Below, in pieces: positions 1 through 15,595 of a DNA stretch of 42,009 bases; position 1 is the stretch's first letter; each line of letters opens with the position of its first letter. The position numbers were made by a program, and so were the translations under genes. The stretch lies in the IMG/VR virus record IMGVR_UViG_2541047963_000003; one strand, 5' to 3'. This stretch comes from a virus. Lineage: Duplodnaviria; Heunggongvirae; Uroviricota; Caudoviricetes. The notes under the pieces were generated by a model. That model saw only the letters and a list, made by a program, of their open reading frames with translations, made no database searches and had not been told where the DNA came from.

Positions 1-1143
1 CTATGCTGTTTTGATATCTACGATAATCCAGTCTTTACCACGATCATCATTGTATCGGTCGGTCATTTTTCTGGATTTATGGCCTAACAACTTTTGCGTA
101 TCCAGACCCTGTTCCCGATATAACCGTTCTGACAGAGATCGCTGCTCATGAAATGTGGGCGCAGTTCCTTGCTCCCATTTTATGCCACATTTTTCCCTGG
201 CCTTTTTAAAAGCCGTTGTCAGAGTATTTGCAGAAACCTGGTCTCCTCTGTTTGCTTGAGAGGTAGTGTGACGGTAATGGACCAGATATTTACTAACAAC
301 AGCATCCCTGCACTGAGATATAACTTCACGAAGGGTAATATTCAGAGCATCGCATTTCAGGCTAAGCGGAATAGCAAGTTTTGAACCGGTTTTTTCCTGA
401 GTAATGTGCAACATGTCGTCCCATATATCAGAGAATTTCAAATTGCAGATATCGCCTAAACGTTGTCCAGTAACAAGAGCAAGTAGCATGCCGCATTTTA
501 AATAGGGCTGCCGTCTGCTTACGCTTTCAAATATTGCCTGCCATTCGGGCAGTGATAATCTTTGGCGGTTTACTCGATTTCGCGGTTGTTTTGTTGCCTG
601 CGCTGGGTTAAATCCTGGCGGAACATGTCCTGCGTGTTGTGCTTCTTTGAAGACGTCGATCAACACCATTCTCACGACTTGCGCCATCCTGTTATGACCT
701 TCAGCCTTTACAGCATCAATTATTTCGGCAATATCAAGTGCGGTAATATCCTTGAGGCGTTGCATTCCACAATGCTCACGGAAAAGACGAATGGGTTTAC
801 CTTTTTGCCGATAGGAGTTGGGTCTTAGTTCATTATGTTGCAGCCTGTCCTCCTGGATAGAAATATATTTATCAAGCCATTCTGTCACCGTAATGTCTGA
901 GCGCCTGCCTTTCATTCTTTCTAGACGCTCATTGACGCTTAATATTTGTCGGGTACGTTGTTCAGCAATAATGGTATTTGCTTCAGTAGCAACTTGTTTT
1001 GCTTCATTCTCATCAGTTCCTAAGCTATGAAAACGACCGGATAGTGGATGTTTGTATTGCCAATATACCTTTCCGGTTCGCTTATCTAATTTGCAATATA
1101 AATTGGGTATAGAGATTTTGTGAGATCGGGGTCTAGCAGCCAT
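1..1143 (-). CDS. int: Tyrosine integrase, lambda Int family
   Basis: 380-aa ORF; C-terminal region aligns by eye with lambda Int (HELRSLSARLY-like segment, LGHKS, RYxDDRG, WxxxxI); overlaps xis by 11 nt as in lambda; stop codon at nt 1-3. Confidence 0.9.
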   Translation of the reverse strand: MAARPRSHKISIPNLYCKLDKRTGKVYWQYKHPLSGRFHSLGTDENEAKQVATEANTIIAEQRTRQILSVNERLERMKGRRSDITVTEWLDKYISIQEDRLQHNELRPNSYRQKGKPIRLFREHCGMQRLKDITALDIAEIIDAVKAEGHNRMAQVVRMVLIDVFKEAQHAGHVPPGFNPAQATKQPRNRVNRQRLSLPEWQAIFESVSRRQPYLKCGMLLALVTGQRLGDICNLKFSDIWDDMLHITQEKTGSKLAIPLSLKCDALNITLREVISQCRDAVVSKYLVHYRHTTSQANRGDQVSANTLTTAFKKAREKCGIKWEQGTAPTFHEQRSLSERLYREQGLDTQKLLGHKSRKMTDRYNDDRGKDWIIVDIKTA

Positions 1144-2887: not shown

Positions 2888-3016
2888 CTAAGCCAGCCGC
2901 TGGGCTTTCAGTGGATTTTGGATAACAGAAAGGCCGGGAAATACCCAGTCTCGCTTTGTAACGGAGTAGATGAAAGTGATCGCGCCTACCCGGATATTAT
3001 CGTGAGGGTGCGTCAT
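2888..3016 (-). CDS. Lambda orf60a-like protein, 42 aa (shorter than the 60-aa lambda form)
   Basis: Translation [42 protein letters not shown] matches my recollection of the lambda orf60a N-terminus; start overlaps exo stop (ATGA). Confidence 0.4.
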
Positions 3017-3693
3017 CGCCATTGCTCCCCAAATACAAAACCAATTTCAGCCAGTGCCTCGTCCATTTTTTCGATGAACTCCGGCACCATCTCGTCAAAA
3101 CTCGCCATGTACTTTTCATCCCGCTCAACCACGACATAATGCAGTCCTTCACGCTTCATACGCGGGTCATAGTTGGCAAAGTACCAGGCATCTTTTCGCG
3201 TCACCCACATGCTGTACTGCACCTGGGCCATGTAAGCTGACTTTATGGCCTCGAAACTACCGAGCCGGAACTTCATGAAATCCCGGGAGGTAAACGGGCA
3301 TTTCAGTTCAAGGCCGTTGCCGTCACTGCATAAACCATCTGGAGAGCAGGCGGTACGCATACTTTCGTCGCGATAGATGATCGGTGATTCAGTAACATTC
3401 ACGCCGGAAGTGAACTCAAACAGGGCTCTGGCGTCGTTCTCGTACTGTTTTCCCCAGGCCAGCGCTTTAGCGTTAACTTCCGGAGCCACACCGGTGCAAA
3501 CCTCAGCAAGCAGGGTGTGGAAGTAGGACATTTTCATGTCAGGCCACTTTTTTCCGGAGCGGGGTTTTGCTATTACGTTATGAACTTCTGAAGCTGTGAT
3601 GACGCCGAGCCGTAATTTGTGCCACGCATCATCCCCCTGTTCGACAGCTCTCACGTCGATCCCGGTACGCTGCAGGATAATGTCCGGTGTCAT
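3013..3693 (-). CDS. exo: Lambda exonuclease (Red-alpha)
   Basis: 226-aa ORF; full-length, near-identical by recollection to lambda Exo ([50 protein letters not shown]...). Confidence 0.95.
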
Positions 3694-4475
3694 GCTGCCA
3701 CCTTCTGCTCTGCGGCTTTCTGTTTCAGGAATCCAAGAGCTTTTACTGCTTCGGCCTGTGTCAGTTCTGACGATGCGCGAATGTCGCGGCGAAATATCTG
3801 GGAACAGAGCGGCAATAAGTCGTCATCCCATGTTTTATCCAGGGCGATCAGCAGAGTGTTAATCTCCTGCATGCTTTCATCGTTAACCGGAGTGATGTCG
3901 CGTTCCGGCTGGCGTTCTGCAGTGTATGCGGTATTTTCGACAATGCGCTCGGCTTCATCCTTGTCATAGATACCAGCAAATCCGAAGGCCAGGCGGGCAC
4001 ACTGAATCATGGCTTTATGCCGTAACATCCGTTTGGGATGCGACTGCCACGGGCCGGTGATTTCTCTGCCTTCGCGGGTTTTGAATGGTTCGCGGCGGCA
4101 TTCATCCATCCATTCGGTAACGCAGATCGGATGATTACGGTCCTTGCGGTAAATCCGGCATGTACAGGATTCATTGTCCTGCTCAAAGTCCATGCCATCA
4201 AACTGCTGGTTTTCATTGATGATGCGGGACCAGCCATCAACGCCCACCACCGGAACAATGCCGTTCTGCTTATCAGGGAAGGCGTAAATTTCTTTCGTCC
4301 ACGGATTAAGGCCGTACTGGTTGGCGACGATCAACAATGCGATGAACTGCGCATCGCTGGCATCACCTTTAAATGCCGTCTGGCGAAGAGTGGTGATCAG
4401 TTCCTGTGGGTCGACAGAATCCATGCCGACACGTTCAGCCAGCTTCCCTGCCAGCGTTGCGAGTGCTGTACTCAT
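3690..4475 (-). CDS. bet: Recombination protein Bet (Red-beta, ssDNA annealing)
   Basis: 261-aa ORF; full-length match to recalled lambda Bet; overlaps exo start by 4 nt. Confidence 0.95.
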
Positions 4476-4480
4476 CCGTT

Positions 4481-4777
4481 TTATACCTCTGAATCAATAT
4501 CAACCTGGTGGTGAGCAATGGTTTCAACCATGTACCGGATGTGTTCTGCCATGCGCTCCTGAAACTCAACATCGTCATCAAACGCACGGGTAATGGCTTT
4601 TTTGCTGGCCCCGTGGCGTTGCAAATGATCGATGCAGAGTGATTCAAACAGGTGCTGGGACAGACCCTTTTCCATGTCGTCTGCCAGTTCTGCCTCTTTC
4701 TCTTCACGGGCGATCTGCTGGTAGTGACGTGCCCAGCTCTGAGCCTCAAGACGATCCTGAATGTAATAAGCGTTCAT
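4481..4777 (-). CDS. gam: Gam (RecBCD inhibitor), 98-aa short form
   Basis: [21 protein letters not shown]... matches lambda GamS; the in-frame upstream region reads ...FRSSA then hits a stop, so the 138-aa long form is not encoded. Confidence 0.9.
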
Positions 4778-4852
4778 GGCTGAACTCCTGAAAATGGCTG
4801 TGAAAATATCGCCCGCGAAATGCCCGGCTGATTAGGAAAACAGGAAAGGGGA

Positions 4853-5143
4853 TTAGTGATTGAGGCCGTTGCCGCGTCCGTCGAGAAAAACTTCCACGAG
4901 CAAATCACGGGTATAAGTGCGCTCGATGCCGCGATGCAGATAAAGCCGTCCGCGTAAATTAGCTGATGCAGTCCAGGTACCATCTTTGTGTTTGACCAGC
5001 ATTCCTGGCATGACCGCACCTCGATTAACGGTCTGCGTTCCGTAATGTTGATGAACCATAAAAACTCCTGCCCGTAAGCTGGGCTGCTGAACATATAGAG
5101 ACTTCTGCGCGTATTCAGGCGGTGGATGGCCGCCGGTTGTCAT
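4853..5143 (-). CDS. Hypothetical protein at the kil position (possibly shorter from an internal Met)
   Basis: 96-aa ORF; stop lies 76 nt upstream of the gam ATG, the spacing I recall for lambda kil relative to GamS; sequence not recognised. Confidence 0.35.
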
Positions 5144-5335
5144 AACTAAGCCGCCTCGTTGAAGCGACTAAGGTATGAAATGTTGAGTTGATTTCAGCTG
5201 GTCACACCGACGTTCACGCGTCCGTTTCACCCCTCGCACTCCCCGAAGCCTGCTGAAATTCAAACTGCGGATCTAAGCGGTCATCGCAACGGTGAATCAG
5301 GTAGTTGCCGTATCGTTGTGTTGTTGCGATGAACT

Positions 5336-5410
5336 TATTTAAAACTATAGTTGTTTTATCGTCAACAACAAAAGTTGTTTTATTGGTTGTTTTAGATATA
5401 ACTGGTTGTA
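5336..5410 (-). promoter_or_regulatory. Putative pL promoter and oL operator cluster
   Basis: On the minus strand, -35 TTGACG (plus 5360-5365), 17-18 nt spacer, -10 TTAAAT/TAAATA; spacer ATAAAACAACTATAGTT nearly identical to the pR spacer; GTTGTT/AACAAC inverted repeats at 5350-5369 and 5364-5379; repeated (A/G)GTTGTT at 5349, 5373, 5385, 5403. Confidence 0.5.
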
Positions 5411-5504
5411 TTTAGGATGGATTTATTTTGTGACTTGAATCGCATAGCGATAACTGAAGCGAGGTTATGGTGGTTTTTTTAACGGTGTGTGTGATGAGGG
5501 GAGG

Positions 5505-5533
5505 GCAAAAGAAAACCCGGCACGGTGACCGGG
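5505..5533 (-). terminator. Candidate intrinsic terminator downstream of the repressor gene
   Basis: Minus-strand hairpin CCCGG-N8-CCGGG (plus 5516-5533) followed by TTTTCTTTT on the minus strand; stem is only 5 bp. Confidence 0.35.
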
Positions 5534-5654
5534 ATTCTTACGCCGTTAGGTAAAGATATTATTGCGGTGGCTTAATATTACTACCTAGAGCAAAGATAGG
5601 AATTAGTTCTTTACTGAATGAGCACAATGCCCAGTTGATAATTTTTAATTGGTA

Positions 5655-6344
5655 CTACCCATGCTTCCTATATGTCTGCGGCATGCTCCCAATAACCTTA
5701 CCGAAGATGAACACCCGGTTCATCTCGTCTTTCTCGATCGGGTCCCACGGTGAGTAGCTTTTGTTATCAGAGATGACCAGCAGCTTATCCTTCATCATTT
5801 GCAGGCGCTTTACATGGGCTGTGTCGTCGTACAGAAACGCATAGATACCATCACCGTCGAAAGATTTAACTGTGATATCAACGAACAGCAGATCACCTGG
5901 TTCGATCGTTCCTGACATGCTGTCACCACGCACGTTAATGATGCGGATATTTTCCGCCTTCCTACCATCGAACATGTGACGAGCATCGTCAAACGAGTAC
6001 TCAACCGAGCGTAGAACTTCTACAAACTCACGGTTGATGACTCCCGGCCCAGCACTGACTTCTATATCAAGAACGTCAATCTTGAAGTATTTGGAATGGC
6101 TGACAGTTGATTGTATTGGTTGCACTGTACTGTCTGACATATTTCCAACGCCAGAAGATAACCATTCTGCGCGCACACCCAAAGCGTTCGCGATCTCCAC
6201 GATTTTAGTTGTTTGATTAGCTTTCCCTGTTTCGATTTTCTGAATAGCAGCCTGGCTAACCCCGACCAAATCCCCAAGCGCCTTTTGTGTAAGGCCTCGC
6301 GCTAATCTGGCTTCTTTAAGTCTTTCTGAGAGTGTTGTTTTCAT
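5655..6344 (-). CDS. cI: Prophage repressor, cI-like (XRE-family HTH plus S24 LexA-like peptidase domain)
   Basis: 229 aa from MKTTLSERLKEARLARGLTQKALGDLVGVSQAAIQKIETG (HTH); C-terminal GDSM...KRL resembles the S24 Ser/Lys dyad region; divergent from cro across an operator region. Confidence 0.85.
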   Translation of the reverse strand: MKTTLSERLKEARLARGLTQKALGDLVGVSQAAIQKIETGKANQTTKIVEIANALGVRAEWLSSGVGNMSDSTVQPIQSTVSHSKYFKIDVLDIEVSAGPGVINREFVEVLRSVEYSFDDARHMFDGRKAENIRIINVRGDSMSGTIEPGDLLFVDITVKSFDGDGIYAFLYDDTAHVKRLQMMKDKLLVISDNKSYSPWDPIEKDEMNRVFIFGKVIGSMPQTYRKHG

Positions 6345-6353
6345 AGTCCAAAT

Positions 6354-6421
6354 GTACAACCAAGGTTTTATTCCATCAAACGAAAATGGTTGTTGACTAA
6401 AAACAACCATAGTTTTAATCT
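6354..6421 (+). promoter_or_regulatory. oR operators and pR promoter
   Basis: Perfect palindrome ATGGTTGTT-GACTAAA-AACAACCAT at 6386-6410 overlapping -35 TTGACT (6393-6398); 17-nt spacer; -10 TAATCT (6416-6421); imperfect site ACAACCAAGGTTTT at 6354-6369 beside the cI start; cro RBS GGAGG at 6439-6443. Confidence 0.6.
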
Positions 6422-6448
6422 TGATTCAAGTTAACCACGGAGGTTGTT

Positions 6449-6679
6449 ATGAACCCAGCTATCAAAACAGCGATCAATATCGTTGGTTCACAAAAGAAAC
6501 TGGGCGCTGCTTGCGAAGTTTCACAGCAGGCCGTCTATAAGTGGCTTCACAACAAAGCAAAGGTATCCCCTGAACATGTCGGCAGCATTGTTACGGCTAC
6601 TGGTGGAGTAGTGAAGGCATACCAGATTCGCCCGGATCTTCCGAAGTTGTTTCCACACACCGAAAAGAACGCAGCTTAA
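6449..6679 (+). CDS. cro: Cro-like repressor (YdaS/Cro-type HTH)
   Basis: 76-aa ORF divergent from the repressor; VGSQKKLGAACEVSQQAVYKW is an HTH like Rac YdaS/Cro-family proteins. Confidence 0.8.
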   Translation: MNPAIKTAINIVGSQKKLGAACEVSQQAVYKWLHNKAKVSPEHVGSIVTATGGVVKAYQIRPDLPKLFPHTEKNAA

Positions 6680-6748
6680 ATTTCCATTTCACGCTCTTTA
6701 ACAATAAGCAATCAACTTAACAGTCAATTCAAACTAAAGGAGTCAATT

Positions 6749-7288
6749 ATGCAACCACTTACATACCAACAGACTAGCGGATTTAGCCCGACTGCGGTGA
6801 TAAATCGTTCTCAAACAAAACAGGTGCCAGGCCACGAAAAAATCCGTGATGCCGTCCGCGCCTGGTCGGCTGTAGATAATCAGGATGTCGTTGCCACACT
6901 CATTGTGAATGAGTATCGGGAGCAGGGCGGCGGCACCATCGATTTCCCTGATGATGTCAGCCGTGCACGCCAGAAGCTGTTCCGCTTCCTCGATAACAAA
7001 TTCGATTCTGAAAAATACCGAAATAACGTGCGTGAACTGACCCCGGCAATTCTGGCGGTACTACCGCTGGAATATCGCGGTTACCTGGTTGAGCAGGATA
7101 GCTTCATGGCTAGGTTGGCTGAAATGGAAAAGGAACTCAGTGAGGCAAAACAGGCTGTCATTCTCAACGCACCACGCCACCAGAAACTGAAGGAAATTAG
7201 TGAAGGTATTGTGTCGATGTTTCGTGTGGACCCAGATCTGGCTGGTCCATTGATGGCGATGGTTACTACCATGCTGGGGGCGATATGA
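6749..7288 (+). CDS. CII-position regulator, possibly CP76/phage-186-CII-like
   Basis: 179-aa ORF between cro and O with RBS AGGAG; size and position fit the CP76-type CII family rather than 97-aa lambda CII; family assignment from memory only. Confidence 0.5.
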   Translation: MQPLTYQQTSGFSPTAVINRSQTKQVPGHEKIRDAVRAWSAVDNQDVVATLIVNEYREQGGGTIDFPDDVSRARQKLFRFLDNKFDSEKYRNNVRELTPAILAVLPLEYRGYLVEQDSFMARLAEMEKELSEAKQAVILNAPRHQKLKEISEGIVSMFRVDPDLAGPLMAMVTTMLGAI

Positions 7289-9314: not shown

Positions 9315-9701
9315 TTGAGTTCAAACTGTAGTACAATTCTCTCCAGTTTGAACAGGAAAGAATATGCTATTAACCCTTATATTTATCTTGGTGGTGCAAT
9401 ACTTGCAGAGGTCATTGGTACAACCTTAATGAAGTTTTCAGAAGGTTTTACACGGTTATGGCCATCTGTTGGTACAATTATTTGTTATTGTGCATCATTC
9501 TGGTTATTAGCTCAGACGCTGGCTTATATACCTACAGGGATTGCTTATGCTATCTGGTCAGGAGTCGGTATTGTCCTGATTAGCTTACTATCATGGGGAT
9601 TTTTCGGCCAACGGTTGGACCTGCCAGCCATTATAGGCATGATGTTGATTTGTGCCGGTGTGTTGGTTATTAATTTATTGTCACGAAGCACACCACATTA
9701 A
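9315..9701 (+). CDS. emrE: SMR-family multidrug efflux protein EmrE (start codon uncertain)
   Basis: Residues from NPYIYLGGAILAEVIGTTLMKFSEGFTRLWPSVGTII... to ...LSRSTPH match E. coli EmrE; the position of the canonical Met reads ATT (9369-9371); the track ORF starts at TTG 9315; RBS AGGAAAG at 9354-9360. Confidence 0.8.
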   Translation: MSSNCSTILSSLNRKEYAINPYIYLGGAILAEVIGTTLMKFSEGFTRLWPSVGTIICYCASFWLLAQTLAYIPTGIAYAIWSGVGIVLISLLSWGFFGQRLDLPAIIGMMLICAGVLVINLLSRSTPH

Positions 9702-9956
9702 AAATAATTTATTTTTAAACGACTAAAATATGGAGGTTCGTATATTTGTATGGGCCTCGTTTTATGCTTTTTGTTAATGTCTTTAGTTTTTATTCATTCT
9801 TTTGATCTTTCAAGATTATGGTGTAAGAAAATTGCAATACGATTATTGTTGTATATTCAAGATAATGTGACCTTAATTGTCTTTTTAAATAAAAATTAAA
9901 CAAAAATCATATCTCACCACTAAGGTTTATAAAAGCATACTTTAGCAGGTGTCACC

Positions 9957-11483: not shown

Positions 11484-11808
11484 GTAATAATCACTTTTTC
11501 AACCGTGCTATGGTATGAAAGTAAAGTAACTAATATGATATTAACTATCTTGAACGAAGCGCCCTGAGCTATAGTTTTACTATAGGCACTGTCACTGGAT
11601 GTTGGCATTCTTGCTCTAGTAGCTCAACAATACCCAATCACAAAACAATTCACTGATAACAAACTTTGTGCACGTGCTTGGTTATGGCGAACAGGTGATG
11701 TTAACCTCTTGCCAGAATGCCACTCCACTTCATTAAGTATCTGAGCACCGAGAGGCTGGTCACGCCCCCATTAAAAATAATTTCTTTTGAATCGAGTGAA
11801 ATAGGTTA

Positions 11809-11834
11809 GCCCGCATAAGTGCGGGCTGCTTTTT
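11809..11834 (+). terminator. Intrinsic terminator hairpin between ybcK region and the convergent esterase gene
   Basis: GCCCGC-ATAAGT-GCGGGC stem-loop followed by TGCTTTTT; overlaps the esterase stop codon. Confidence 0.5.
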
Positions 11835-15516: not shown

Positions 15517-15595
15517 CTGAACGGTGAGTAGCCTTCCAACCTACCCCAGCCAGGGTGTCTTCAGCTGTTGAGTTGATATTGCTTAACCCTCTGTT

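Follow-up and report, generated by a model that had tools for sequence, protein, structure and literature searches.

How is the early left operon of a lambdoid phage expressed when the gene for its antiterminator is missing? The question is raised by an 877-nt interval, positions 4778–5654, of a 42,009-nt stretch of Caudoviricetes DNA (IMG/VR record IMGVR_UViG_2541047963_000003; the whole stretch is called the window below). The interval separates gam from the stop codon of the repressor gene. In the textbook cascade of phage lambda, N acts first, followed by the delayed-early genes and then Q. For the window, we give a somewhat better than even chance to the explanation that N is not needed in the left operon, the leftward promoter pL being ungated and its transcript running directly into kil, gam, bet and exo. 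The N-less interval is real; its layout is normal for a very common, working phage family and is to that extent largely ordinary.

The left 9 kb of the window reads as a lambda-like prophage of Escherichia coli. As in lambda, divergent promoters pL and pR with multiple operators flank the repressor gene, which is here of the S24 type; kil, gam, bet and exo follow pL, with gam, bet and exo close homologues of the same lengths as their lambda counterparts; and a boxA follows cro. Unlike lambda, the window has no N, boxB, nutL, tL1-type terminator, cIII, ea10, ral, sieB or rex, its Kil belongs to a family (phrog_294) that lambda Kil does not match, and the gene at the CII position is of the YdaT-domain type.

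A preliminary description of the window had placed gam at 4481–4777 on the minus strand and the repressor stop at 5655, and had listed N, cIII, ral, sieB and rex as missing between them. The coordinates were right, and the list withstood protein-level searches that took in short open reading frames (ORFs). The whole window was searched by tblastn with lambda N, cIII, Ea10, Ral, SieB, RexA and RexB, with P22 gp24, C3, Ral, SieB and gp17, with phi80 N and HK022 Nun, and with the early-left proteins of HK225 and HK639. The best N, Nun, cIII, Ea10, Ral, SieB or Rex match had E = 0.005, and the weak matches lay inside bet or tail genes; the sole real matches were to Kil of HK225 (85% identity, 5059..4856) and of HK639 (38%). 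A six-frame translation of the interval with stops masked returned Kil alone from PHROGs (phrog_294, E = 3.5e-38) and nothing from Pfam. Between 5144 and 5654, where ORFs of at least 60 aa had been reported absent, neither strand contains one longer than 40 aa, the largest measuring 31–40 aa, and, where a genome with 100% identity across the interval has been annotated by RefSeq/PGAP, the space from kil to the repressor is left blank. A lack of long ORFs over ~500 nt is by itself not statistically remarkable; the interest lies in the contrast with lambda.

The only gene between gam and the repressor stop is kil, and the non-coding gap extends over 5060–5654. An earlier reading of a single 96-aa ORF at the kil position was correct as to the gene and probably not as to its length. 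The 68-aa form, as found in HK225, HK639 and the PGAP annotation, is most likely: residues 1–68 align to positions 13–80 of the 83 in phrog_294, a full-length match to this family of cell-division inhibitors. The 96-aa version, read from 5143, is a conserved upstream ORF fused in frame with kil. A 106-aa ORF that overlaps kil in another frame (4774–5094, minus strand) matches no family.

The same arrangement is widespread. Phage PhiR34_1, which plates on MG1655, matches the interval at 99.3% identity and phage Turner at 98.7%; over 95% of its length the interval is 92–96% identical in 4A7 (genus Bievrevirus), 4C10, 1W, 3W and IdasGreatGrand; plaque-forming phages with this N-less layout, at 92–99% identity, are PhiR34_1, Turner, 4A7 and Perceval. 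No N gene appears in any of the three annotated records PhiR34_1, PhiR47_2 and 4A7 (3/3). The genome of PhiR34_1, a complete DLP12-like phage, includes emrE, ybcK–ybcO, rusA, Q and nmpC. Among complete E. coli genomes the interval has a match in 3143 of 5426, and at least 80% of it is present in 1987 of 5426. Prophages of Citrobacter, Kluyvera, Enterobacter and Silvania also carry kil close behind a putative pL-type promoter, and the short leader between them leaves no space for N.

This distribution bears on one rival explanation, namely that the prophage is decaying and recently lost N, cIII, ral and sieB by deletion. The gap is indeed short relative to lambda, but many independent genomes have an identical architecture, as do plaque-forming phages, the pL leader is joined to three immunity types, and no remnants of N-region genes are detectable; we regard a deletion as very improbable. 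Alignment to relatives, proposed earlier as the means of recognizing one, gave the same architecture in plaque-forming phages and in the 1987 genomes. The judgement that the prophage is not simply decayed was sound, since exo, bet and P have exactly their lambda ORF lengths, gam covers the full 98-residue PHROG gam profile, and near-identical regions are found in plaque-forming phages. As the region has no N, the prophage is not decayed and its near-identical relatives form plaques, we infer, in agreement with the preliminary description, that early expression is N-independent. The lambda cascade is often assumed in prophage annotation, and a missing N should not count as a sign of prophage decay.

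The repressor-proximal part of the gap (5654–5415) is the 3′ untranslated region (UTR) of the repressor transcript and contains a good intrinsic terminator at 5533–5516. In 4A7 and PhiR47_2 the same terminator lies 3′ of two accessory genes inserted after cI, an ASCH-domain gene and one for a 350-aa protein, annotated GevA/GevT in PhiR47_2 (cassette coordinates L002 4263–5691 and L003 4258–5674). Because of this, 5415–5654 can be read as 3′ UTR together with an accessory-gene slot that is empty here and corresponds to the rex position of lambda. Missing ral, sieB, ea10 and rex would then be optional accessory genes, with other accessory genes filling the rex slot in relatives, and cIII would be dispensable because the CII-position gene is of a different family, with a YdaT domain. 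Beyond the slot lies pL, whose core is an inverted copy of that of pR (a 19-nt inverted repeat, 95% complementary, joining 5339–5357 with 6400–6418); a 9-bp palindrome lies at 6386–6410 in the right operator OR, and repeats are common to OR and the left operator OL. The pL transcript probably starts near 5330, which gives a leader of ~270 nt before the kil AUG.

What lies between pL and kil was compared across loci that carry a conserved hairpin (5177–5141) followed by the upstream ORF. A pattern search with the invariant core UUAUGACAAYCGGCGGCCAUCCACCG added many contigs, and HK639, for a total of 201 usable loci, of which 121 have the leader type of the window and 80 have other types. An intrinsic terminator abuts the hairpin (for example, GCCGCCUAACCAGCGGCUUUUUU-CAUACC) in 76 of the 80 and in 0 of the 121; in all of the latter the T-run upstream of the hairpin is absent and there is no cassette. 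Where it is present, the abutting terminator closes a variable gene cassette, which is the N gene in phi80 and a wide variety of accessory ORFs elsewhere. In phi80, HK225 and KO-TP1 the hairpin and the ORF start MTTGGHPPP form a module before kil or its equivalent, as in the window and with compensatory changes in the stem, but there the module directly follows the terminator that ends an N gene or accessory cassette, whereas in the window it follows a 150-nt non-coding leader without a terminator. A third arrangement is seen in contig L103, where a genuine put element (91.6 bits) separates pL from the hairpin. This slot therefore has one of three contents: a terminator-ended cassette, which polymerase must cross and which needs N or put; put alone; or, as here, a 150-nt non-coding leader with no such obstacle.

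A terminator scan of the minus strand from pL to kil (5330–5060) returned nothing terminator-like. Further along the operon are weak candidates inside genes (4910–4894 and 4357–4339), and the next is a short hairpin with U6 at 2355–2341, beyond exo. Thus the terminator-bearing cassette, the reason why related phages need N or put, is absent here as well, and an antiterminator for exo, bet and gam may be unneeded. On derepression, polymerase would start near 5330, transcribe the ~270-nt leader and go straight on into kil, gam, bet and exo, which would act as immediate-early genes without an N-type timing gate. The recombination and kil genes of this family should accordingly be switched on once the repressor is lost.

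N-less lambdoids are already recognized in the literature, two of them being HK022 and LLS: in HK022, put RNA interacts with the zinc-binding domain of the RNA polymerase beta-prime subunit (PMC9378689), and for LLS a put-type mechanism has been conjectured only (PMC12315714). Nothing specific to the present phage family was found in literature searches on N-less lambdoid mechanisms. An RNA of the HK022 put type, offered as an example mechanism in the preliminary description, is rejected for the window. A covariance model (R1) built from HK022 putL, HK022 putR and HK639 putL recovered HK022 at 97.7 and 65 bits and two contigs outside the model, L103 and L096, at 91.6 and 90.5 bits; over the whole window, with filters off, its best score was 7.9 bits (E = 1.1), inside gene O. 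Rfam at a permissive threshold gave only chance-level matches in 4700–6800 (E = 0.7 or worse). The window resembles HK022 and HK639 in being lambdoid without N and in having a non-coding RNA segment directly downstream of pL, and put in L103 fills the slot that this segment holds in the window; it differs in having no put match, no second copy on the pR side, and no fold-stability or covariation signal.

That non-coding segment, the 115-nt leader core X (5182–5296), is the basis of another rival, in which X is a new cis-acting antiterminator or anti-pausing RNA, put-like in function and unrelated in sequence, that makes polymerase from pL resistant to Rho and to terminators such as 2355–2341. 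In 80 viral contigs whose Kil is 100% identical to that of the window, the leader has ~97% identity to that of the window yet follows any of three unrelated promoter/operator types, with homology beginning at 5329–5330 in two of them (that of the window and that of 4A7) and at ~5296 in the third; this makes the leader an independent module. Its conservation behind three promoter types, the invariance of 5217–5193 across 40 unique leaders, the lack of conserved coding capacity and a location matching that of putL in L103 all argue for this reading. Against this, X matches neither the put model (E > 1) nor Rfam, the leader folds no better than shuffled sequences (z = -0.01 for 270 nt and +0.67 for 155 nt), and compensatory changes affect 0 of 63 predicted pairs in 46 sequences, a comparison that is uninformative at ~97% identity. 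No second copy lies downstream of pR, where HK022 has putR (chance matches of 9–11 nt are all that the window offers), and no terminator stands directly downstream for X to act on. Comparison with the leaders of ENT1, HK639, KO-TP1, HK225, phi80, L103, a Klebsiella phage and lambda gave no significant similarity (z ≤ 2.6 throughout), and a scan of genome contigs with Kil added only nine loci with leaders not homologous to X and no covariation data. An antitermination role for X is thus improbable in our estimate, and we give the same small weight to the broader proposition that X is an undescribed cis-acting RNA that modifies RNA polymerase in a phage family present in about one-third of E. 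coli genomes. X is nonetheless a specific candidate for a new antiterminator RNA.

Within X lies a 31-aa arginine-rich ORF, 5263–5168, which could be imagined as a miniature N-like peptide. Its KRTRERR motif recalls the arginine-rich motifs by which lambda N (TRRRERR) and P22 gp24 (KTRRHERRR) bind RNA. Where relatives read CAG for TAG at 5170–5168 the frame continues into kil as an N-terminal extension; 29 of 40 unique leaders keep it open all the way from 5272 to the end of kil, the annotation of PhiR47_2 gives a 128-aa Kil, and the commonest polymorphisms are synonymous in the kil frame. Yet the ORF starts with TTG and has no Shine-Dalgarno sequence, matches no PHROG or Pfam family, suffers indels of +1, -1 and +5 nt in 6 of the 40 leaders, and varies at the stop codon (T in 11, C in 29). 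Counted by site, its changes are 5 synonymous and 11 nonsynonymous, the latter including Arg to Trp and Arg to Cys; there is no boxB-type hairpin as a target, and the peptide is far too short to hold the NusA- and polymerase-binding regions of N. An N-like protein, whether this ORF or the long Kil, was rejected on the frame-breaking indels, the variable stop, the missing ribosome-binding site and the missing family match, and the peptide is scarcely credible as the answer.

The remaining rival delegates early antitermination to host Nus factors through boxA alone: with NusB/NusE, NusA, NusG and SuhB, the pR complex would become Rho-resistant. The site in question, CGCTCTTTAACAA, matches the rrn-type boxA at 13 of 13 positions, lies in the nutR position ~265 nt from the probable pR start, and is the only one in the window within two mismatches; by our own estimate, chance would give ~0.003 exact matches in 84 kb. 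Downstream of it comes a C/A-rich, G-poor stretch that looks like a Rho utilization site. BoxA alone recruits NusB/NusE and, with NusA, NusG and SuhB, prevents Rho termination without N (PMC7665894). The boxA after cro may therefore recruit host NusB/NusE and shield the pR transcript from Rho. As in the rrn-type systems of rRNA operons, CRISPR arrays and suhB, the exact consensus CGCUCUUUAACAA stands early in the pR operon and no phage protein would be required; in contrast to them, the window has boxA in the right operon only and in one immunity type, without boxB or boxC, and its function is putative. The pL leader has no boxA (best site, 5 of 13 positions mismatched), and reading of the sequence after 6692–6704 reveals no boxB-type hairpin. 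The site is present in 23 of 41 loci of the window's immunity type and was not found in the other two types (35 and 3 loci), for which the 2.5 kb covered may not extend beyond cro; it is absent from 4A7, for which the locus covers the post-cro region and which shares the N-less left arm of the window. An intrinsic terminator still reduced expression strongly in the control reporter of PMC7665894, and the boxA may be one half of a former nutR site, a relic left after module exchange removed boxB and N. We consider this explanation unlikely, though less so than a role for X; as a general explanation boxA is rejected, being confined to one immunity type.

Several points weigh against an ungated pL. 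The conservation of X behind three promoter types marks a putative element to which no function is assigned. The terminator-like hairpin 2355–2341 (GGAGCUACAGGCUCC then U6, inside a 31-codon ORF between orf61-like and TraR/DksA-like genes) is conserved in exact sequence in 31 loci of relatives and is the first plausible barrier between exo and xis–int. Rho-dependent termination is invisible in sequence, and the leader, 270 nt long and C-rich at its 5′ end, could plausibly serve as a Rho substrate. The boxA, limited to one immunity type, is not a general solution. On the right, strong intrinsic terminators at 9733–9758 (after emrE) and 11807–11828 (after the recombinase gene) lie between pR and nin/Q, and intrinsic terminators before nin/Q are also found in the working phage PhiR34_1, in which emrE and ybcK are present, followed by ybcL–ybcO, rusA and Q; a read-through device or internal promoters would therefore be needed for full delayed-early and late expression. 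How these phages pass strong accessory-gene terminators between pR and Q is an experimentally tractable question. The residual novelty resides in this right-arm read-through, in the conserved leader core, and in the module of hairpin and upstream ORF.

The hairpin of the module is established by covariation. Positions 5180–5118 are the only part of the leader with homologues beyond the phage group, in phi80, HK225, KO-TP1 and Enterobacter phages. In the hairpin 5177–5141, 7 of the 14 pairs show compensatory double changes (stem variants include GUCGC/GCGGC, GCAAC/GUUGC, ACGGG/CCUGU, GUCAU/GUGGC, CCGUUC/GUGCGG and GGCAGA/UCUGCC), and pairing extends to 98.7% of its cells; shuffles gave 82%, with 0 of 500 attaining the observed value, and slid partners gave 27–41%. 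The upstream ORF has nine constant first codons (MTTGGHPPP) and a variable remainder, is 16–43 codons long, and in the phage group of the window runs in frame into kil. A second small hairpin lies in a nearly invariant string, UUAUGACAACCGGCGGCCAUCCACCG, found at more than 200 loci; its counterpart in HK639 was annotated by the depositors as a terminator, and no U-run follows the copy in the window. The 5177–5141 hairpin sequesters the AUG of the upstream ORF and most plausibly tunes translation of the toxic kil, possibly by start-codon occlusion or RNase III processing, and not transcription elongation. The positions of these and the other features are collected in Table 1.

Table 1. Coordinates of the features of the early region in the window
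Feature	Position	Strand	Evidence and remarks
int	1–1143	-	with xis
exo	3013–3693		ORF length exactly as in lambda
bet	3690–4475		ORF length exactly as in lambda
gam, 98 aa	4481–4777	-	phrog_259 over 1–98 of 98, E = 8.6e-60; PGAP: Gam family protein
kil, 68 aa, FtsZ-inhibitor family	4853–5059	-	phrog_294, E = 1.3e-37; AGGAG 5 nt 5′ of ATG 5059
Second small hairpin	5118–5134	-	GGCGG-CCAUCCA-CCGCC; consensus fold; inside first codons of upstream ORF
Conserved RNA hairpin	5141–5177	-	3′ arm holds upstream-ORF AUG (5143–5141) and GAGG
Arginine-rich TTG ORF, 31 aa	5168–5263	-	contains RGVRGVKRTRERR; inside X; judged non-coding
Leader core X, 115 nt	5182–5296	-	non-coding; same sequence after three unrelated promoter/operator types; 121 loci
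pL transcript 5′ end, C-rich	5297–5330	-	UCAUCGCAAC can pair with GUUGCGAUGA (5290–5281); sequence and consensus fold
pL (predicted)	5337–5365	-	-35 TTGACG 5365–5360, 17-nt spacer, -10 TTAAAT 5342–5337; read from sequence
OL operator cluster	5339–5415		GTTGTT/AACAAC-type repeats; direct D1, D3 and inverted I1, I2, I4, I5, I8 tie OL to OR
Intrinsic terminator of repressor (pRM) transcript	5516–5533	-	CCCGGTCACCGTGCCGGG then UUUUCUUUU; terminator scan
CI-like S24/LexA-family repressor, probably 229 aa	5655–6344 (ORF open to 6410)	-	phrog_4, E = 5e-73; PGAP: S24 family peptidase, 690 nt
pR (predicted)	6393–6421	+	-35 TTGACT, 17-nt spacer, -10 TAATCT; within OR 6356–6420
cro-like gene, 76 aa	6449–6679	+	phrog_35, E = 1.5e-27
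rrn-type boxA	6692–6704	+	13/13 match; 13 nt after cro stop; nutR position
CII-position gene, YdaT-domain family, 179 aa	6749–7288	+	phrog_163, E = 3.9e-67; PGAP: toxin YdaT domain-containing protein

The module of hairpin and MTTGGHPPP, which includes a polyproline motif, has no Rfam match and is common to phi80, HK225, HK639, phages of Klebsiella and Enterobacter, and over 200 contigs; examples are L005 33104–33165, L006 3001–3059, L007 3501–3563 and L092 2501–2600. The leaders of L215–L221 (Citrobacter, Silvania, Enterobacter and Kluyvera) differ from that of the window and are conserved among themselves, sharing a 5′ stem GACAAC..GUUGUC and the string GUUCCGCCAGCCUGGCGACAAGG, with a longer structured segment in some. 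Two contigs labelled as Bacillota and Atopobium metagenome-assembled genomes (L214 and L220) carry this enterobacterial kil at 100% and 85% identity, which is probably binning contamination. KO-TP1 and ENT1 have boxA-like sequences, UGCUUUUUAACAA and UGCUCAUUAAGAA, early in their pL leaders (L092 1895–1915 and L093 1555–1575); these leaders start like that of HK639, without the HK639 put core.

A 13-nt motif, AATCAACTYAACA, is present in the sense orientation in both early transcripts, at 5193–5181 (minus strand) and at 6710–6722 (plus strand, 5 nt after boxA), and a third copy with one mismatch lies antisense at 15578–15566 (minus strand), between Q and the holin gene. By chance 0.10 matches are expected. 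In relatives the pL copy varies, a 5-nt duplication being among the variants, and constraint on the motif looks weak.

Outside the early region, small genes resembling those of the lambda b-region lie between xis and exo. The YdaT-domain gene is followed by O, P and ren and then by DLP12-type accessory genes (emrE, 9315–9701, and a ybcK-like recombinase gene); the segment 9315–12876 between ren and nin/Q contains emrE, the gene for the ybcK-like serine recombinase and, in the opposite orientation, a 347-aa gene. In E. coli MS1170 (L224, NZ_CP056077.1) the prophage with a 100% identical interval sits next to icd, and to the right of P an inverse autotransporter gene replaces ren and emrE, which points to mosaic right arms.

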